From Escherichia coli (GTDB lineage: Bacteria > Pseudomonadota > Gammaproteobacteria > Enterobacterales > Enterobacteriaceae): a stretch of 64,000 nucleotides of DNA. The stretch lies in the NCBI RefSeq assembly GCF_048403405.1, contig NZ_CP183129.1; one strand, written 5' to 3'. Position 1 is the stretch's first letter, and each line of letters opens with the position of its first letter. Below are positions 20,984 to 55,605 of the stretch, in pieces. The position numbers and the translations under genes were made by a program. The notes below the pieces were generated by a model that was not told the origin of the DNA, searched no databases, and worked only from the letters and a program-made list of their open reading frames with translations.

Positions 20984-21016
20984 GAGGCCCGATGGTGATG
21001 CCATCGGGCTGTTTTT
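20984..21016. terminator. Bidirectional terminator between convergent ccmH and narP
   Basis: Hairpin gcccgatggtgatgccatcgggc flanked by an A-run and a T-run. Confidence 0.65.
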
Positions 21017-21662
21017 ATTGTGCCCCGCGTTGTTGCAGGAACAGAATGGTGGCCGCCACGCGTGAGCGGACATTGAGTTTACGCAGCAGATTGCGAATGT
21101 GTACTTTTACTGTCTGCTCGGAAATATTCAACACCGAGGCAATCTGTTTATTTGACAGCCCCTGTGCCAGCTCGTGCAGAACATCCAGCTCGCGCTCCGT
21201 CAGCACGCTGAAGGGATCTTCTTCCGCGCCAAACATTTCACGTTCACGTAAGTACTGATTGACGCGTTCGCTAAAGACTTTGCTGCCTTTCGCTCCGGCA
21301 CGAATCGCTTCCAGCAACACTTCCGGGTCGCTGTCTTTCAACAGATAACCGTCTGCGCCTGCGTCTATCAGCGCAAAGACATCGCTGGAGGCATCGGATA
21401 CGGTCAGGATAATAATTTGCGCGGTAACGCCATCCCTGCGCAAGGCATTGAGGGTATCCAGGCCACTCATACCTTTCATATTGAGATCCAGCAAGATCAC
21501 GTCGATATCCAGTCTATTCGCCAGATCGATCGCGCTCGCGCCGTCGCCCGCTTCGGCGACCACTTCAAAGCCAGGATCAAGCTCCAGTAACTGACGAACA
21601 CCGCGTCGCATAAGTGGATGATCATCCACAATCATCACCTGAAAAGGCGTTGCTTCAGGCAT
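21015..21662 (-). CDS. narP: Nitrate/nitrite response regulator NarP
   Basis: 215 aa from the internal ATG (MPEATPFQVMIVDDHPLMRRG); receiver domain plus LuxR-type HTH. Confidence 0.9.
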   Translation of the reverse strand: MPEATPFQVMIVDDHPLMRRGVRQLLELDPGFEVVAEAGDGASAIDLANRLDIDVILLDLNMKGMSGLDTLNALRRDGVTAQIIILTVSDASSDVFALIDAGADGYLLKDSDPEVLLEAIRAGAKGSKVFSERVNQYLREREMFGAEEDPFSVLTERELDVLHELAQGLSNKQIASVLNISEQTVKVHIRNLLRKLNVRSRVAATILFLQQRGAQ

Positions 21663-21981
21663 AGTAGTCTCCTGAGGTTTTATTAGAATCATTATGTTTG
21701 AGCGTAGCGTTGGTAACGCTACCAGGCGCGTGAATGTTACCCCATTTTATGTATGGACATGTAGCGAAAACTACAACCTTGTCGTTCGCTTTGGCATCAC
21801 TTTCATTATAAAGACGGAATTTTGCATCAGCTTCTCATCAAGAAAAACAACTAAAAAATCAATCACAATACTTGTGCATTTCTTTAAACAGTTTTTAAAA
21901 ACTGACTCCGGGTATGGAGCTATGGGTATTTTCTCTACCCAATGCTTTTAACAGCAATTAATTTCATAGGATGAAAGCTCA

Positions 21982-24573
21982 ATGCATCAATCTGGTTCTG
22001 TTTCTCTTTGTCGTTCCGCAATATCTGTTCTGGTGGCTACAGCGTTATATTCACCCATAGCATTGGCATCAACAGTTGAGTATGGTGAGACAGTTGATGG
22101 TGTTGTCCTGGAAAAAGATATCCAGCTGGTTTATGGGACCGCCAATAATACGAAAATCAATCCTGGCGGAGAACAGCATATTAAAGAATTTGGTATAAGT
22201 AGTAATACTGAAATTAACGGCGGGTATCAGTACATTGAAATGAATGGCACCGCAGAATACTCAATATTAAATGATGGTTATCAAATTGTTCAAATGGGTG
22301 GTGCGGCAAACCAGACTACCCTCAATAATGGTGTGTTACAGGTTTATGGCGCAGCGAATGAACCTACGATTAAAGGCGGGCGCTTAATTATTGAAAAAGA
22401 TGGGATTACCGTCTTTGCCGCTATCGAAAAGGGAGGATTACTGGAGGTTAAAGAGGGGGGATTAGCATTTGCGGTAGATCAGAAAGCCGGCGGTGCGATT
22501 AAAACAACCACCCGGGCCATGGAGGTATTCGGAACAAACCGTCTCGGTCAGTTCGATATCAAGGATGGTATTGCTAATAATATGCTGTTGGAAAACGGCG
22601 GAAGTTTGCGAGTTGAAGAAAATGACTTCGCTTATAATACCACTGTGGATAGTGGCGGCTTACTGGAGGTTATGGATGGCGGGACTGCAACTGGCGTTGA
22701 TAAAAAAGCAGGCGGAAAATTAATTGTCTCAACGAATGCGCTGGAAGTGAGTGGTACAAACAGTAAAGGCCAATTTAGTATAAAAGATGGTGTGTCAAAA
22801 AATTATGAACTGGATGATGGTTCCGGGCTCATTGTTATGGAGGACACGCAGGCCATTGATACTATCCTTGATGAGCATGCCACTATGCAATCGCTGGGAA
22901 AGGATACTGGTACGAGAGTGCAGGCAAATGCGGTATATGATCTCGGTCGATCAGATCAGAATGGAAGTATCACGTATTCCTCAAAAGCCATCTCTGAAAA
23001 TATGGTTATCAACAATGGCCGCGCTAACGTCTGGGCTGGCACAATGGTTAACGTTTCAGTCAGAGGGAATGATGGCATTCTTGAGGTCATGAAGCCGCAA
23101 ATAAATTATGCGCCCGCAATGTTGGTGGGTAAGGTAGTGGTTTCTGATAGCGCTTCTTTTAGAACGCATGGTGCCGTGGATACCAGCAAAGCGGATGTTT
23201 CGCTCGAAAATAGCGCATGGACCATCATTGCCGATATCACTACGACGAACCAAAACACTCGCCTCAACTTAGCCAACCTTGCGATGTCTGGCGCAAATGT
23301 GATTATGATGGCTGAGCCAGTGACTCGTTCATCTGTGACGGCAAGTGCGGAAAATTTCATTACGTTGACCACCAATACCCTGTCGGGAAATGGCAATTTT
23401 TATATGCGTACCGATATGGCTAATCATCAGAGCGATCAGCTCAACGTCACCGGTCAGGCAACAGGTGATTTCAAAATATTCGTGACGGACACCGGTGCCA
23501 GCCCGGCAGCAGGAGATAGCCTTACACTGGTAACAACGGGCGGCGGTGATGCTGCATTTACGTTGGGCAATGCCGGAGGCGTTGTTGATATCGGTACGTA
23601 TGAATATACCTTGCTGGATAATGGCAACCATAGCTGGAGCCTCGCAGAGAATCGCGCGCAAATTACCCCTTCAACCACTGATGTGCTGAACATGGCAGCA
23701 GCACAACCGCTGGTATTTGATGCAGAACTGGACACCGTGCGTGAGCGTCTTGGTAGCGTAAAAGGCGTTAGTTACGATACGGCGATGTGGAGTTCGGCAA
23801 TTAACACCCGCAACAACGTGACCACTGATGCGGGAGCTGGCTTTGAGCAAACATTGACGGGCCTGACGCTCGGTATCGATAGCCGTTTCTCCCGTGAAGA
23901 AAGCAGCACAATTCGCGGCTTGTTCTTTGGTTACTCTCATTCTGATATTGGTTTTGATCGCGGCGGCAAAGGTAATATCGATAGCTACACCCTGGGGGCT
24001 TATGCCGGTTGGGAGCATCAGAACGGTGCCTATGTTGATGGAGTGGTGAAAGTTGACCGTTTTGCCAACACCATCCATGGCAAGATGAGTAATGGAGCAA
24101 CAGCGTTTGGCGATTACAATAGTAACGGCGCGGGTGCTCATGTCGAGAGCGGGTTCCGTTGGGTTGACGGATTGTGGAGTGTTAGACCCTATCTGGCCTT
24201 TACCGGCTTTACCACAGATGGTCAGGACTACACGTTATCAAATGGCATGCGCGCGGATGTGGGAAATACCCGGATATTACGCGCTGAAGCGGGAACGGCG
24301 GTAAGCTATCACATGGACCTGCAAAACGGTACGACGTTGGAACCCTGGCTGAAAGCCGCCGTGCGTCAGGAATACGCCGATTCTAACCAGGTGAAAGTTA
24401 ATGACGATGGCAAATTTAATAATGATGTGGCTGGAACCCGTGGCGTTTATCAGGCTGGGATAAGGTCATCGTTTACCCCGACGTTAAGCGGTCATTTGTC
24501 AGTCAGTTATGGCAATGGCGCAGGGGTAGAATCGCCGTGGAATACTCAGGCGGGTGTGGTCTGGACGTTCTGA
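21982..24573 (+). CDS. yejO: AIDA-I-type autotransporter YejO, intact
   Basis: 863 aa; signal peptide, repetitive G-rich passenger region, C-terminal beta-barrel ending ...QAGVVWTF. From memory this gene is IS5-disrupted in K-12. Confidence 0.8.
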   Translation: MHQSGSVSLCRSAISVLVATALYSPIALASTVEYGETVDGVVLEKDIQLVYGTANNTKINPGGEQHIKEFGISSNTEINGGYQYIEMNGTAEYSILNDGYQIVQMGGAANQTTLNNGVLQVYGAANEPTIKGGRLIIEKDGITVFAAIEKGGLLEVKEGGLAFAVDQKAGGAIKTTTRAMEVFGTNRLGQFDIKDGIANNMLLENGGSLRVEENDFAYNTTVDSGGLLEVMDGGTATGVDKKAGGKLIVSTNALEVSGTNSKGQFSIKDGVSKNYELDDGSGLIVMEDTQAIDTILDEHATMQSLGKDTGTRVQANAVYDLGRSDQNGSITYSSKAISENMVINNGRANVWAGTMVNVSVRGNDGILEVMKPQINYAPAMLVGKVVVSDSASFRTHGAVDTSKADVSLENSAWTIIADITTTNQNTRLNLANLAMSGANVIMMAEPVTRSSVTASAENFITLTTNTLSGNGNFYMRTDMANHQSDQLNVTGQATGDFKIFVTDTGASPAAGDSLTLVTTGGGDAAFTLGNAGGVVDIGTYEYTLLDNGNHSWSLAENRAQITPSTTDVLNMAAAQPLVFDAELDTVRERLGSVKGVSYDTAMWSSAINTRNNVTTDAGAGFEQTLTGLTLGIDSRFSREESSTIRGLFFGYSHSDIGFDRGGKGNIDSYTLGAYAGWEHQNGAYVDGVVKVDRFANTIHGKMSNGATAFGDYNSNGAGAHVESGFRWVDGLWSVRPYLAFTGFTTDGQDYTLSNGMRADVGNTRILRAEAGTAVSYHMDLQNGTTLEPWLKAAVRQEYADSNQVKVNDDGKFNNDVAGTRGVYQAGIRSSFTPTLSGHLSVSYGNGAGVESPWNTQAGVVWTF

Positions 24574-24632
24574 TAACAGAAAATAAACAGGCCGTGATGT
24601 GTCGCGGTCTGTTTATCGAATTAAATGCAGAT

Positions 24633-24668
24633 ATAAAAAAACCAACCGTAAAGGTTGGTTTTTTTTGG
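24633..24668. terminator. Bidirectional terminator between yejO and proL
   Basis: Hairpin aaccaaccgtaaaggttggtt flanked by A7 and T8 runs. Confidence 0.65.
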
Positions 24669-24674
24669 GATTTT

Positions 24675-24751
24675 TGGTCGGCACGAGAGGATTTGAACCT
24701 CCGACCCCCGACACCCCATGACGGTGCGCTACCAGGCTGCGCTACGTGCCG
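24675..24751 (-). tRNA. proL: tRNA-Pro (GGG anticodon)
   Basis: The reverse complement reads CGGCACGTAGCGCAGCCTGGTAGCGCACCGTCATGGGGTGTCGGGGGTCGGAGGTTCAAATCCTCTCGTGCCGACCA, a cloverleaf with a GGG anticodon and encoded CCA. Confidence 0.9.
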
Positions 24752-24825
24752 ACTCGTGGCTGTTAATACTACCGTTTTCCACACCGATTGCAAGTAAGAT
24801 ATTTTGCTAACTGATTTATAATTAA

Positions 24826-26605: not shown

Positions 26606-26833
26606 TTAGTGCGCTTTGTCTTCGTTGATAGAGGACTGTAAGGCGCGGGCAAAAGAGTTGGCAATTGCCTGGCGTTGGGCCGGGGCAATGCTGGTGTTGA
26701 TAAGGTTAGTGACCATGTTGCCTAACACCATCAGGGAAAGGTCGGTCGGAGCCTTATGTTTTTCCAGTACGTTGAGCAGCTCTGCGAGCAATTGTTCAAC
26801 CTGTTCATCACTGTAGCGGGAAATTTGTGGCAT
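26606..26833 (-). CDS. yejL: UPF0352 protein YejL
   Basis: 75 aa, [20 protein letters not shown]... Confidence 0.85.
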
Positions 26834-40416: not shown

Positions 40417-40983
40417 TTAGCTGCGGCTGAGAACCCGGCGTGCTTCGTTGTAACGCTTCTTCCAGTACGGTTCATTCATGCTGGAAATAATAACACCACT
40501 GCTGGTGGAAGCATGGACAAACTGATTGTTGCCGATATAAATACCGACATGGCGTCCCGTTGAACCGGCACGGAACAGAACTAAATCACCCGTACGCAAA
40601 TTACTGCGGGAAACAGATTTACCCATTTCCTGCTGTTCGTAAGTCGAACGCGGAAGTTCTAAGCCAAATTGCTCACGGAATGTACGCTGTACGAAACCAG
40701 AACAATCGATACCTTTTTTAGTGCTGCCGCCCAGGCGATAACGTACGCCTTTCCAGTCAGCATACTGATCCATAATTCGCGATTTTACGTCGACATTACG
40801 AACCAGGTTTTCAAATTCATCCTGAGAAGCTTGCAGTGATGATGTTTCACTACCCACTGCACGTGTCTCAGGATGCATATTCTTTGCGGTGTTATTTGCA
40901 CTACATGCAGAAAGCAGAACCGCTACTGCAATCGCGGGAATCCCGCGCAAGATATATCTCAAAATCGGTTGAGATTTGACCAT
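40417..40983 (-). CDS. mepS: Peptidoglycan DD-endopeptidase MepS (Spr), NlpC/P60 lipoprotein
   Basis: 188 aa; lipobox LSAC; catalytic DCSGFVQ. Confidence 0.9.
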
Positions 40984-41394: not shown

Positions 41395-42108
41395 TTATTT
41401 GTTTTGGAAATGTTTGTTTTTTCCCGGTAGTGATTTGTCAAAAAAGGTGATTAATCGATCACTTAATGGCGTCAGCAACACCCAGGGCAAACCGATCAAT
41501 ATCACGGTCATCGAACCTACAATGATGTCAGTAAACCAGTGTGCGCCAATCATTACTCTGGGAAATGCAAAAACCACAAAAATAATAAGGGCGATAAGGC
41601 CTGCAACTTTGCCGAAATAACGCCACATGAATGCCGAAAAAATAAGCAGCATCATACCGTGATCACCGGGAAAGCTATCTCGTGAGGCATCTTTCGTGGG
41701 GACAGAGAGCAGTTCGCTGACGCGGTTAATATTGGTAAAAGTCAATGTTGGGCTGGCCCGTTTTACAGGAATTAATGCCTGACCCAGCTGGTTTAATACC
41801 ACTGCAGTTAATAGCATGACCAGACCAATAATCACGATACGTCGTCTGCCAGGGGCGTTTTCTTTCAGCCAGAAACTCAGCATCAACATTCCCATCGCCA
41901 GCAGAGAACAACCGTCGAAAGCGCGATTGTTGGTCAATGCAACCAGCCACAAAAAGGCCTTACTTTCGACCAGTTTCTGATTAAAGAAATAAAAAATATC
42001 CGCATCAATCGGCAACCAGAATCCATGATTAACGGGAATATACCAGGAAAGAAACAGCGCGAGGCCGACAATATTCAACAACACTATTTGCGGCAAATTT
42101 TTAATCAT
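41395..42108 (-). CDS. lpxT: Lipid A 1-diphosphate synthase LpxT (YeiU), PAP2 family
   Basis: 237 aa from the internal ATG (MIKNLPQIVLLNIV...). Confidence 0.85.
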   Translation of the reverse strand: MIKNLPQIVLLNIVGLALFLSWYIPVNHGFWLPIDADIFYFFNQKLVESKAFLWLVALTNNRAFDGCSLLAMGMLMLSFWLKENAPGRRRIVIIGLVMLLTAVVLNQLGQALIPVKRASPTLTFTNINRVSELLSVPTKDASRDSFPGDHGMMLLIFSAFMWRYFGKVAGLIALIIFVVFAFPRVMIGAHWFTDIIVGSMTVILIGLPWVLLTPLSDRLITFFDKSLPGKNKHFQNK

Positions 42109-51666: not shown

Positions 51667-52608
51667 ATGCGCGAAAAGGATTATGTCGTAATTATAGGTT
51701 CGGCGAATATTGATGTCGCCGGATATTCACATGAATCATTAAATTATGCGGATTCAAATCCAGGTAAAATAAAATTTACGCCTGGTGGAGTAGGGCGCAA
51801 TATTGCACAAAACCTGGCGTTGCTGGGGAATAAAGCCTGGCTACTGAGCGCAGTAGGCAGTGATTTTTATGGTCAATCGTTGCTAACGCAAACCAATCAA
51901 TCTGGTGTTTATGTCGATAAATGCCTGATTGTGCCGGGAGAAAATACGTCGAGCTATTTATCATTACTCGATAATACCGGTGAAATGCTGGTTGCTATAA
52001 ATGACATGAATATTAGCAACGCTATTACAGCTGAATATCTCGCACAGCACGGTGAATTTATTCAGAGGGCAAAGGTCATTGTCGCGGACTGTAATATCAG
52101 TGAAGAGGCACTGGCATGGATTCTGGATAATGCCGCCAACGTACCCGTATTTGTCGATCCTGTTTCCGCGTGGAAATGTGTCAAAGTGCGCGACCGTCTA
52201 AATCAAATCCACACTCTCAAGCCAAACCGCCTTGAAGCGGAAACCCTGAGTGGGATTGCTTTGTCAGGGCGTGAAGATGTGGCAAAAGTTGCTGCCTGGT
52301 TCCATCAACATGGCCTGAACCGACTGGTATTGAGCATGGGCGGCGACGGCGTTTATTACAGTGATATCAGCGGTGAAAGTGGTTGGTCTGTGCCGATCAA
52401 AACCAATGTCATTAATGTTACCGGAGCGGGCGATGCCATGATGGCTGGACTTGCTTCGTGTTGGGTAGACGGAATGCCGTTTGCCGAATCTGTTCGTTTC
52501 GCACAGGGATGTTCGTCAATGGCGCTCTCCTGTGAATACACCAATAACCCCGATTTATCGATTGCCAACGTTATATCGTTAGTGGAGAACGCAGAATGTC
52601 TGAATTAA
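51667..52608 (+). CDS. psuK: Pseudouridine kinase PsuK (YeiC)
   Basis: 313 aa, PfkB family (GAGDAMMAG). Confidence 0.9.
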   Translation: MREKDYVVIIGSANIDVAGYSHESLNYADSNPGKIKFTPGGVGRNIAQNLALLGNKAWLLSAVGSDFYGQSLLTQTNQSGVYVDKCLIVPGENTSSYLSLLDNTGEMLVAINDMNISNAITAEYLAQHGEFIQRAKVIVADCNISEEALAWILDNAANVPVFVDPVSAWKCVKVRDRLNQIHTLKPNRLEAETLSGIALSGREDVAKVAAWFHQHGLNRLVLSMGGDGVYYSDISGESGWSVPIKTNVINVTGAGDAMMAGLASCWVDGMPFAESVRFAQGCSSMALSCEYTNNPDLSIANVISLVENAECLN

Positions 52609-53534
52609 AAATTTCCCCTGAATTATTACAAATTTCCCCGGAAGTGCAGGACGCTTTAAAAAACAAAAAACCGGTTGTGGCGCTGGAATCGACCATTATT
52701 TCTCACGGGATGCCGTTCCCACAAAATGCCCAGACCGCAATTGAAGTTGAAGAAACTATTCGTAAACAGGGCGCTGTACCTGCCACTATCGCCATTATTG
52801 GCGGCGTGATGAAAGTGGGTTTAAGCAAAGAAGAAATTGAATTGCTGGGTCGTGAAGGGCATAACGTGACCAAAGTTAGTCGTCGCGATTTACCTTTTGT
52901 TGTTGCCGCCGGAAAAAATGGCGCAACTACCGTTGCTTCAACGATGATTATTGCGGCGCTTGCCGGAATTAAAGTATTTGCCACCGGGGGAATTGGTGGT
53001 GTGCATCGCGGGGCGGAACATACCTTCGATATTTCTGCCGATTTGCAAGAACTGGCAAATACTAATGTCACCGTTGTTTGTGCCGGTGCAAAATCTATTC
53101 TCGATTTAGGATTAACAACAGAATATTTAGAAACCTTCGGTGTGCCGTTAATTGGCTATCAGACAAAAGCGCTGCCTGCGTTTTTCTGCCGTACCAGCCC
53201 ATTTGAAGTTAGTATTCGCCTTGATAGTCCCACGGAAATCGCTCGTGCAATGGCGGTGAAATGGCAAAGCGGTCTGAACGGTGGCCTGGTGGTGGCAAAT
53301 CCGATCCCGGAACAGTTTGCGATGCCGGAACACACTATCAATGCGGCGATCGATCAGGCGGTAGCTGAAGCTGAAGAGCAGGGCGTTATTGGTAAAGAAA
53401 GCACACCGTTCCTGCTGGCTCGTGTTGCTGAACTGACTGGCGGTGACAGCCTGAAATCCAACATCCAGCTGGTGTTCAACAACGCCATTCTGGCGAGCGA
53501 AATTGCCAAAGAATATCAGCGTCTCGCGGGTTAA
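52596..53534 (+). CDS. psuG: Pseudouridine-5'-phosphate glycosidase PsuG (YeiN)
   Basis: 312 aa; start overlaps psuK. Confidence 0.9.
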   Translation: MSELKISPELLQISPEVQDALKNKKPVVALESTIISHGMPFPQNAQTAIEVEETIRKQGAVPATIAIIGGVMKVGLSKEEIELLGREGHNVTKVSRRDLPFVVAAGKNGATTVASTMIIAALAGIKVFATGGIGGVHRGAEHTFDISADLQELANTNVTVVCAGAKSILDLGLTTEYLETFGVPLIGYQTKALPAFFCRTSPFEVSIRLDSPTEIARAMAVKWQSGLNGGLVVANPIPEQFAMPEHTINAAIDQAVAEAEEQGVIGKESTPFLLARVAELTGGDSLKSNIQLVFNNAILASEIAKEYQRLAG

Positions 53535-54945: not shown

Positions 54946-55605
54946 TTACTGCATCATCCCTGAGAATTTATTTTCCGGGTCCATCTCCAGTGCCAGTCCT
55001 GACAACTGCTTTCTGTTTTTAATTAGATACCCTTTCTTGCTTTTAATTAATAAACCGTCGTGAATGAATTGCGCTAGAACATATAAAAGATGTCGATAAG
55101 AAACGCCTAAATACTCTGCCGCTTGCGTATGCTTTTCGTGATAAAGATCACCTTCCTGCGAGAGTAATATAAAAGCTGCCAGGCGATTCACTAACGGAAA
55201 TGATTGATTCTGAGTTAAAGAAACAATATTGCGATAATTTTTATGGCTTAAGGTGACGCAGAGTTTTCGTAAAAATAGCGTGTCGTTTAATAACAGCGGA
55301 CGGTAATGTTTCATAGGGAGCGCAAGGCACCAACACTCTTCAATAGCCTGTACCGCACGCGGTTCATGGTCTTTGTCGATTAACTCAATCTCGCCAATAA
55401 AACAGGGAGCGGCAAAGAAATCGATCAGCGACACGCGACCATTAGCTAGCGTGGCGTAAAGCCTGGCGCGGCCTCGCGTCAGGTAAAACAGCCAGGACGG
55501 CTGTTGCCCTTCCTGCACAATGTAGTCACGCGCTAAAAAATGAAACAGCCGCGTATCGGCTGAAACATCCGTTGAAAAGCAATCCTTAAACGCGGATTCA
55601 CTCAT
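54946..55605 (-). CDS. yeiL: Crp/Fnr-family transcriptional regulator YeiL
   Basis: 219 aa from the internal ATG ([10 protein letters not shown]...); cNMP-binding-like domain plus C-terminal HTH. Confidence 0.85.

Follow-up and report, generated by a model that had tools for sequence, protein, structure and literature searches.

An intact yejO autotransporter gene of Escherichia coli: a probable Escherichia-specific insert between proL and narP with an ancient passenger repeat

What is the long uninterrupted reading frame that lies between narP and the tRNA-Pro gene proL in this Escherichia coli genome, how did it come to be there, and could it still encode a working surface protein? These questions were addressed in a 64,000-nucleotide window (the whole stretch of DNA that was analysed, to which all coordinates refer). 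The two genes at the centre of the locus are as follows.

21982-24573, plus strand: yejO coding sequence, 863 aa plus stop, intact, recognised from the ORF, its Pfam/NCBIfam domains and a 100% match to RefSeq yejO.
24675-24751, minus strand: proL, tRNA-Pro (anticodon GGG), found by ARAGORN and by the Rfam tRNA model (54.9 bits).

The ORF begins with ATG and has zero internal stops, as expected from the original prediction of an intact 863-aa gene, and it matches the RefSeq entry "autotransporter YejO" from E. coli TUM14771 (NZ_CP128875) at 100% identity. Nucleotide identity with most E. coli is 97.5-99%, and the locus is found in 5,425 of 5,426 complete E. coli genomes. The gene order ccmH-narP-yejO-proL-yejM is shared with the annotated yejO locus of TUM14771, and both near-identity to named YejO proteins and position between narP and proL-yejM place the protein in the YejO orthologue group. 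The 3' ends of yejO and proL do abut, as had been proposed, converging with 101 nt between them. It had also been claimed that IS5 interrupts the K-12 gene and is missing here; this proved correct, with the K-12 IS5 placed at window positions 22045-22048 (codon ~22). The K-12 sequence differs from the present allele by ~2.5%, and otherwise there is no substantive difference between the annotated YejO (b2190) and the gene here. The feature is the known E. coli gene yejO (b2190), encoding a classical (type Va) autotransporter and intact in the strain at hand; taken as a whole, the explanation developed below is considered very probable.

As a named and widely annotated E. coli autotransporter gene, yejO belongs to known biology; the literature already describes the IS5 insertion in the K-12 gene, the lack of yejO in ST131 and phage integration at proL. 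What the present analysis adds are the edges of the insert that appears to carry the gene, an age for it that probably predates the split from E. albertii, an allele in 5% of genomes that lacks one four-rung module, and a tally of inactivations set beside the signs of purifying selection.

The encoded protein divides into five parts.

21982-22068, plus strand: predicted Sec signal peptide (aa 1-29, cut after ALA), from sequence features and hydropathy; residues 1-28 have pLDDT <50.
22069-23397, plus strand: variable beta-helix passenger (aa 30-472), Ag43/AIDA-like with one rung per 18-19 aa, from AlphaFold, Foldseek and phmmer.
23272-23646, plus strand: Pertactin-like domain (aa 431-555), the passenger end or autochaperone region (PF03212, E 5e-45; PDB 1dab).
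23668-23757, plus strand: alpha-helical linker (aa 563-592), predicted to pass through the barrel pore, from a DSSP helix in the AlphaFold model.
23779-24570, plus strand: 12-strand beta-barrel translocator (aa 600-863), from PF03797, TIGR01414, the model and a BrkA match.

The N-terminus, MHQSGSVSLCRSAISVLVATALYSPIALA|STV, contains a basic residue, a hydrophobic core and an A-L-A motif, with a Kyte-Doolittle maximum of 2.4 at residues 13-22; residues 1-28 are disordered in the AlphaFold model. Pfam assigns AIDA (PF16168) in two stretches, Pertactin (PF03212) to aa 431-555 and Autotransporter (PF03797) to aa 602-841, the barrel scoring E 6e-46 with PF03797 and 372 bits with TIGR01414 against a cut-off of 16. 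The model (mean pLDDT 84) comprises a beta-helix, a helix at residues 563-592 and twelve long barrel strands. In Foldseek searches the passenger matched Ag43 (7koh, 7ko9 and 4kh3) with E values of 1e-26 to 1e-17 and the barrel matched the BrkA beta-domain (3qq2) with a target TM-score of 0.91, the EspP and NalP barrels also being found; phmmer against the PDB returned Ag43, TibA, Vag8, pertactin and BrkA. As modelled, YejO has the barrel, the helical linker and the beta-helical passenger with a pertactin-like C-terminal region that characterise type Va autotransporters. On family knowledge, the predicted 29-residue signal peptide would route YejO via Sec, the C-terminal barrel (aa 600-863) would enter the outer membrane, its pore occupied by the linker (aa 563-592), and a right-handed beta-helix of ~530 residues (aa 30-560) would thread out to form an Ag43/AIDA-like adhesin stalk at the surface.

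Among known systems, the self-associating autotransporter Ag43 (Flu/Cah; PDB 7koh, 7ko9, 4kh3) is the best match to the passenger (phmmer E 9e-37, Foldseek E 1e-26). The two proteins share AIDA-type beta-helix rungs and a type Va layout, although they are only 20-26% identical and YejO scores 132 bits with the Ag43/Cah equivalog model (NF033177), for which the cut-off is 1200. AIDA-I and TibA are glycosylated adhesin autotransporters. Like YejO, they have AIDA PF16168 modules and TIGR04415 'O-heptosyltransferase target' strand-loop-strand repeats, and TibA (4q1q) matches YejO with an E value of 3e-26. In contrast to both, YejO has a much shorter passenger and, with narP and proL/yejM as its neighbours, no adjacent gene for an Aah/TibC-type heptosyltransferase; its score with the AIDA-I model (NF033176) is 70.8 bits against a cut-off of 1200. 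YpjA/EhaD and YcgV, cryptic AIDA-type autotransporters of K-12, resemble YejO in family, architecture, chromosomal location and poor laboratory expression, YpjA being the closest non-YejO relative found on E. coli replicons at 33% identity, but they are separate paralogues at other loci for which biofilm phenotypes are reported. Both have been grouped with self-associating autotransporters (PMC9289746). By analogy with such relatives, which are at most 25-40% identical to it, and from its structural resemblance to Ag43 and TibA, YejO may be displayed at the surface and mediate adhesion and self-association; the searchable literature yielded no experiments on its function, biofilm phenotype included.

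The original prediction was that yejO may be an old islet acquired beside the tRNA gene. Comparison with Citrobacter delimits four features around the coding sequence.

21663-21779, minus strand: narP upstream (promoter) region, conserved in Citrobacter (five Citrobacter narP upstream regions aligned), marking the left edge of the insert.
21780-21981, plus strand: Escherichia-specific AT-rich region 5' of yejO, presumed promoter and leader (GC 0.34; no Citrobacter counterpart).
24583-24616, unstranded: hairpin just 3' of the yejO stop and inside the insert, an inverted repeat with 15-nt arms that are 87% complementary (no Citrobacter counterpart).
24635-24665, unstranded: bidirectional intrinsic terminator (A-run, 13-bp stem, T-run) common to proL and yejO, conserved in Citrobacter.

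An Rfam search gave no RNA family above threshold except tRNA, and three sub-threshold matches on terminator hairpins (E 0.3-0.8) were dismissed. Homology to the Citrobacter region upstream of narP begins at the narP start and extends as far as window position 21772-21780 or thereabouts, and on the proL side it stops at ~24633, the right edge. In two Citrobacter loci (L007 and L009) proL and its terminator are followed ~177 nt on by narP, without yejO and with a clean junction containing zero gene fragments; only some Citrobacter species have narP adjoining proL, and the comparison rests on few taxa. Since proL directly adjoins narP in these Citrobacter, yejO with its AT-rich upstream 200 nt and its 3' hairpin (about 21780-24632) would therefore appear to be an Escherichia-specific insert, bounded on one side by the proL terminator and on the other by the narP promoter. 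No YejO-like sequence was detected within 10 kb of proL in 78 loci from non-Escherichia species (tblastn, E<1e-5). E. albertii, on the other hand, has a syntenic yejO: the upstream region 21780-21981 and the E. albertii intergenic region (GC 0.345) share 80% identity, and the C-terminal half of the gene (84-90% nucleotide identity) and the flanking genes (88-92%) have diverged similarly. From these alignments the insert was probably gained before the E. coli / E. albertii split.

The opposite history, in which the ancestors of Enterobacteriaceae already had yejO at the proL site and Citrobacter and other genera lost it, draws on the ease with which a dispensable surface-protein gene can be deleted, as in the ST131 remnant, and on the small number of taxa compared. 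We disfavour it as very unlikely, given the 0 of 78 loci, the clean Citrobacter junction, an insert composition that is atypical in two Escherichia species, and the failure to find, among 1.84 billion representatives, any passenger relative of >40% identity outside the YejO group. Acquisition is instead favoured by the Citrobacter loci without yejO, the absence from non-Escherichia loci and the atypical composition, much as had been predicted. The same donor search returned nothing between the YejO group and relatives of ~40% identity. A tblastn search of plasmids for a mobile origin likewise gave no close homologue: true plasmid relatives (YpjA, TibA, AIDA) are <=35% identical, and the top matches, multi-megabase chromosomes filed as plasmids, were rejected.

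The route of acquisition was also considered. The insert resembles tRNA-linked islands in lying directly 3' of proL, in its atypical composition and in its absence from sister genera, and absence from the same site in sister taxa together with atypical composition is what marks a genomic island. Unlike such islands it carries neither an integrase, yejO being its sole gene, nor an att repeat or direct repeats from the tRNA 3' end, and it starts 42 nt beyond the end of the tRNA, past the terminator. A blastn-short comparison of the proL end of the insert with its narP end recovered nothing beyond 11 nt that match the tRNA D-arm region; as an att scar this was judged to be due to chance, lying inside the conserved narP promoter. 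With neither an integrase nor an att scar, and with an insert whose first bases lie past the proL terminator, tRNA-targeted integration is left unsupported. The proL gene is a live integration site, for example for P4-type satellites and the gtrIC prophage (PMC4924310), but the islands integrated there today sit between proL and yejO and do not enclose yejO.

Base composition bears both on acquisition and on the possibility that yejO is a mosaic, its AT-rich passenger and promoter having recombined onto a resident barrel. The gene had been described as more AT-rich than its neighbours. This holds for the promoter and for aa 1-430 (GC3 0.407, z = -2.7) but not for the barrel (aa 601-863; GC3 0.536, z = -0.6), which is indistinguishable from the neighbouring genes. 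For yejO as a whole (GC 0.482, GC3 0.462) the z scores are -1.4 and -1.8, respectively, against the 50 other ORFs of the window; in E. coli only the promoter and the 5' half are AT-rich, and the whole-gene deviation is modest. The narP-yejO intergenic region (21693-21981) is AT-rich, as proposed (GC 0.37, falling to 0.34 in the yejO-proximal 200 nt), and composition is atypical in both the E. coli and the E. albertii insert. A mosaic origin would account for the step in GC3 from 0.41 (aa 1-430) to 0.54 (barrel), and for the drop in identity with E. albertii from 84-90% in the C-terminal half to 47-80% in the passenger, upstream of aa ~473 (boundary near aa 450-475). However, dS between the two species is similar in the passenger and the C-terminal half (1.02 vs 0.70), the difference lying in dN (0.30 vs 0.034); the E. 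albertii barrel also has a low GC3 (0.45 vs 0.57-0.63 in the flanks); and no donor-like passenger was found. We consider a mosaic quite unlikely. Since the insert was gained, strong conservation has marked the translocator half; the passenger has diverged fast, though still under purifying selection.

A tandem duplication of ~75 aa had been noted within the passenger, and it raises the further question of whether stalk length varies among strains. The relevant features are listed below.

22432-22656, plus strand: first repeat unit (aa 151-225), an AIDA PF16168 module of four beta-helix rungs with strands starting at residues 153, 172, 190 and 208.
22657-22881, plus strand: second repeat unit (aa 226-300), an AIDA PF16168 module of four beta-helix rungs with strands starting at residues 227, 246, 263 and 282.
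22483-22704, plus strand: 222-nt segment (one unit, in register) missing in one-unit alleles, with breakpoints in the VD(Q/K)KAGG motif (AAAGC[C/A]GGCGG).

At the amino acid level the duplication is real: the units are 45% identical, and their BLOSUM62 alignment score is 177 compared with 27 +/- 5 (maximum 51) in 500 shuffles. In DNA the units match at 132 of 233 positions (57%), and neither Tandem Repeats Finder nor a seed-based direct-repeat search found a tandem repeat in yejO, so that the repeat is found at the protein level only. E. albertii YejO also has two units. The two 75-aa units are a four-rung AIDA module that was duplicated long ago.

Among the 5,426 complete E. coli genomes, 272 (5%) have the junction left by the loss of 222 nt, one unit in register, as in EC21Z-097 (789 aa, WP_000554212.1), and the one-unit form also occurs in a second allele background (P0066). 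All 272 junctions are >=99% identical over the 60-nt junction query, which is consistent with one main inherited event. The reciprocal crossover junction predicted for a three-unit allele had no match in the 5,426 genomes. A 935-aa variant (P0001) was examined as a three-unit candidate and rejected, having instead a 72-aa duplication in the pertactin-like region. Rare in-register recombination at VD(Q/K)KAGG removes one module exactly, a loss that would shorten the stalk by four rungs and leave the helix unbroken. One-unit alleles in two backgrounds speak for a recent and unstable tandem duplication, a contingency locus with frequent changes in copy number; but units only 57% identical in DNA, the empty repeat searches, junctions consistent with one main event, the missing three-unit junction and the two units of E. 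albertii make this extremely unlikely, and as a frequent process it is refuted. With this DNA identity and the one-unit form as the only copy-number variant seen, yejO does not have the properties of a variable-number tandem repeat. The repeat is ancient family architecture, neither recent nor hypervariable, and its number varies modestly among strains. The combination of flank-like composition with an invariant repeat, named in the original prediction as evidence against an acquired and variable islet, was looked for and is not what the locus has.

Variation extends well beyond the repeat. IS5 of the K-12 type, after codon ~22, interrupts yejO in 357 genomes (the K-12 site is confirmed in PMC11005336) and a deletion of the ST131 type is present in 762; other lesions are IS2, W789* and deletions of a single nucleotide at nt 425 and nt 2270. 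Across E. coli these amount to at least six independent kinds of inactivation, and many lineages have inactivated the gene independently. Three of the eight sampled full-length loci are pseudogenes, and for this reason yejO is clearly dispensable. The one-unit allele (272/5,426), insertions of IS5 and IS2, large deletions, frameshifts and stops together bear out the expectation that yejO is strain-variable. At the same time, dN/dS is 0.12 within E. coli (passenger 0.23, C-terminal half 0.03) and 0.20 in comparison with E. albertii, with 0.03-0.05 for the barrel, and one YejO cluster at 90% identity has 16,859 member sequences with a representative of 863 aa. These ratios point to purifying selection on intact alleles and support the suggestion that the gene is possibly functional.

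Expression data come from K-12, where yejO ranks with the 10 genes that are expressed least often, showing expression in 106 of 3,325 RNA-seq samples (PMC10392735), figures that derive from the IS5-disrupted allele. Possible silencing, for instance by H-NS, has this rarity as its only indirect support. A sigma-70 consensus scan of 21693-21981 gave no site, and no link between H-NS and yejO was found in the literature searched. From the K-12 data and its composition, yejO is probably transcriptionally quiet in laboratory conditions. This rare expression, the many independent inactivations, the pseudogenes and the use of the Keio yejO deletion as a control strain that behaves like wild type (PMC11005336) would all suit a relic whose function is gone and which in this strain has merely not yet acquired a disabling mutation. 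We regard that as unlikely in view of the low dN/dS in both comparisons, a frame kept open since the E. coli / E. albertii split, the large cluster of sequences represented at 863 aa, and the disrupted allele behind the expression figures. For work on function, an intact allele could be supplied by the strain here or by O157:H7.

A more speculative reading, to which we attach little probability, is that the four-rung AIDA module may serve as a length cassette, and that its loss, the knock-outs and the fast-changing passenger reflect antagonistic selection and not neutral decay; YejO could, for example, be a target of phage or host immunity whose stalk has been adjusted in length to the LPS/capsule layer. 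In the intergenic region, an 85-aa ORF (21694-21951) was considered and discounted: in such AT-rich DNA it has probably arisen by chance.

The predicted uninterrupted 863-aa ORF beside tRNA-Pro is the known gene yejO, intact in this strain. When 5,426 complete E. coli genomes were searched by megablast with window positions 21693-24760, the locus was present in 5,425, and one genome, that of strain TUM14771, matched at 100% identity and carries the RefSeq name "yejO: autotransporter YejO" there, which identifies the ORF. Beyond the tRNA gene lie yejM, then yejL and yejK.

21015..21692, minus strand: narP as listed (start conserved across other species at 21662), upstream of yejO and divergent
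21982..24573, plus strand: yejO, 863 aa, uninterrupted
24675..24751, minus strand: tRNA-Pro(GGG) gene (proL), downstream of yejO and convergent

The findings of substance on yejO are already known or are routine comparative detail.

Of the domains proposed from the sequence, the repetitive passenger and the C-terminal barrel were upheld by Pfam, an AlphaFold model and Foldseek, and the signal peptide is a presumed one. Pfam assigned two AIDA modules (PF16168), a pertactin domain (PF03212, aa 431-555) and an autotransporter beta-domain (PF03797, aa 602-841). With NCBIfam the protein scored 372 bits for TIGR01414 and fell far short of the cut-off of 1200 for the Ag43 (132 bits) and AIDA-I (71 bits) equivalogs; phmmer matches in the PDB were Ag43 (E 9e-37), Vag8, TibA, BrkA and pertactin. 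In the AlphaFold model (35-sequence input alignment, mean pLDDT 84) residues 1-28 are disordered; they form the presumed signal peptide, whose sequence has a hydrophobic core and an ALA motif. A beta-helix with a rung every 18-19 residues extends from residue 29 to ~560, followed by a helix (residues 563-592) and twelve barrel strands (residues 600-862). In Foldseek searches, crystal structures of Ag43 resembled the passenger (E 1e-26), and BrkA resembled the barrel (target TM-score 0.91). By analogy with type Va autotransporters, the pathway of which is reviewed in PMC9289746, YejO would be exported through Sec, its barrel would insert, and the beta-helix would be threaded out and then displayed on the surface.

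A locus scan with YejM as query, taking one genome per species, gave 80 Enterobacteriaceae loci. Apart from a few loci that stop before proL or show no tRNA, nearly all keep the order yejL-yejM-proL, and Escherichia alone has a YejO-like sequence after proL. In two Citrobacter loci (L007 and L009) narP starts ~177 nt after proL, and alignment shows homology to the window spanning proL and its terminator hairpin to ~24633 and returning within the narP promoter at ~21775. These limits place the Escherichia-specific insert at ~21780-24632; it comprises 200 nt of GC 0.34, yejO and a 3' hairpin, and its start lies past the terminator of proL, not at the 3' end of the tRNA. A yejO gene occupies the same place in L084, a locus taken as E. 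albertii from its yejM, 99.3% identical to that of the type strain. Its C-terminal half shares 84-90% nucleotide identity with that of E. coli, much as the flanking genes do (88-92%), so the gain is older than the split of E. coli and E. albertii.

The original prediction of an old acquired islet at the tRNA thus stands as to absence after Citrobacter proL, atypical composition and age, but no integrase-type mechanism was seen: the insert holds no integrase and no att repeat. Composition itself backs a foreign origin only moderately. The gene as a whole has a GC3 of 0.462 (z = -1.8 against the 50 other window ORFs); the claim that it is more AT-rich than its neighbours holds for the 5' half encoding the passenger (0.407, z = -2.7) but not for the barrel (0.536, z = -0.6). 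In E. albertii, whole yejO has a GC3 of 0.39-0.45, and the flanking genes 0.57-0.63. Outside the YejO group all passenger relatives were at most 40% identical, and in a plasmid collection all relatives on true plasmids were at most 35% identical. Several 1.4-4.9 Mb records in that collection (matches H81-H83 and H85) are clearly chromosomes or chromosome fragments, so their yejO matches are no sign of plasmid carriage.

The adjoining proL is a hotspot of active integration. Immediately after it the E. albertii type strain and Escherichia sp. MOD1-EC7003 have a P4-type integrase gene, and in E. coli O111:NM a satellite-like island encoding a capsid protein, small terminase, RepA helicase and Icd-like protein lies between proL and yejO (insertions at L018:11913-20250, L004:12118-13298 and L003:8987-14986). 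The proL-terminator junction is non-contiguous in ~600 of the 5,426 E. coli genomes, and these insertions agree with the published gtrIC prophage site of Shigella flexneri 1c (PMC4924310). Several Citrobacter species carry unrelated AT-rich inserts of 1.3-3.5 kb exactly at the Escherichia yejO spot (L005:11912-14351, L010:11912-13212, L011:11912-15399, L015:11912-14931). In L015 the terminator-like hairpin (…AACCGTAAGGTTGGTTTTTTTA) occurs again at the narP-proximal end, which suggests repeated insertion at this spot.

Within E. coli yejO is strain-variable, as had been proposed. The first megablast located at least 80% of region 21693-24760 at a single site in 4,281 of 5,426 genomes. The K-12 interruption by IS5, which this strain lacks, maps to the site below; a one-unit allele of the internal repeat adds to this variation.

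22045-22048: IS5 insertion, K-12 lineage, 357 genomes (PMC11005336, PMC11677980)
22454-23457 and 23912-24543: missing in the ST131-type remnant, first junction in 762 genomes (PMC5654935)
within yejO: IS2 insertion (megablast match H31)
yejO codon 789: W789* stop, two sampled strains
yejO nt 425: 1-nt deletion, one sampled strain
yejO nt 2270: 1-nt deletion, O111:NM

Eight evenly sampled full-length loci comprised five intact genes and three pseudogenes, a sample too small for a reliable fraction. W789* is the same TGG->TGA change in L091 and L092 (NCTC9088 and a 2020s Malian stool isolate), reflecting either common lineage or recurrent mutation.

Intact alleles are nevertheless under purifying selection. 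Between the window and strain EC21Z-097, dN/dS was 0.12 overall, 0.23 in the passenger and 0.03 in the C-terminal half; against E. albertii the values were 0.20, 0.30 and 0.05. Conservation falls sharply upstream of aa ~473. Since the passenger and C-terminal halves have similar dS (1.02 and 0.70), the fall is ascribed to relaxed or diversifying amino acid evolution of the exposed passenger and does not point to a recent recombinational swap. Two E. albertii yejO 3' portions (L018:20257-21758 and L084:7091-8589) are 89.5% identical and the yejM genes 99.3%, so yejO alleles are far more diverse than their flanks within this species.

The proposed tandem duplication of ~75 aa is real but ancient. 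Residues 151-225 and 226-300 align with a score of 177 (shuffles, 27 +/- 5), yet the units are only ~45% identical in protein and 57% in DNA, and neither Tandem Repeats Finder nor a seed-based repeat finder gave a DNA-level match. Each unit comprises four helix rungs in the AlphaFold model and one Pfam AIDA module, and E. albertii YejO also has two; the duplication is thus old family architecture, and a recent event was rejected.

Copy number nevertheless varies, but modestly. The 789-aa YejO of EC21Z-097 lacks exactly window positions 22483-22704 (222 nt, 74 aa), with breakpoints in the VD(Q/K)KAGG motif common to both units. A 60-nt query for this junction matched 272 of 5,426 genomes (5.0%), at 99% identity or better in all 272 and at 100% in the 40 listed, and the variant P0066, from a second, 93%-identical allele background, has the same 222-nt deletion. 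The reciprocal three-unit junction had no match in the same genome set. A 935-aa variant from ENA metagenome contigs, P0001, has a 72-aa duplication inside the pertactin-like region (YMRTDMANH…YEYTLL twice); as the only member of its cluster, it could be either a real variant or a product of misassembly.

Our literature search found no report of a YejO phenotype or of H-NS binding at yejO, and a simple sigma-70 scan upstream of the gene found no consensus promoter. PMC11005336 uses the Keio yejO deletion as a wild-type-like control strain. Across a K-12 RNA-seq compendium yejO was detected in 106 of 3,325 samples, which places it among the ten annotated genes with the rarest expression (PMC10392735); the allele concerned is the IS5-disrupted one. 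From the AT-rich 5' region, H-NS silencing of yejO can reasonably be supposed.

Further window ORFs (40420-40983, 41398-42108, 51667-53531 and 54949-55605) have GC of 0.44-0.48 and GC3 of 0.43-0.49, lower than or as low as yejO, and may also be acquired. The 228-nt yejL (26606-26833) is 99.1% identical in DNA to its E. albertii counterpart (L084:10621-10848), against 88-92% for all neighbouring genes, which points to unusually strong conservation or recent transfer.
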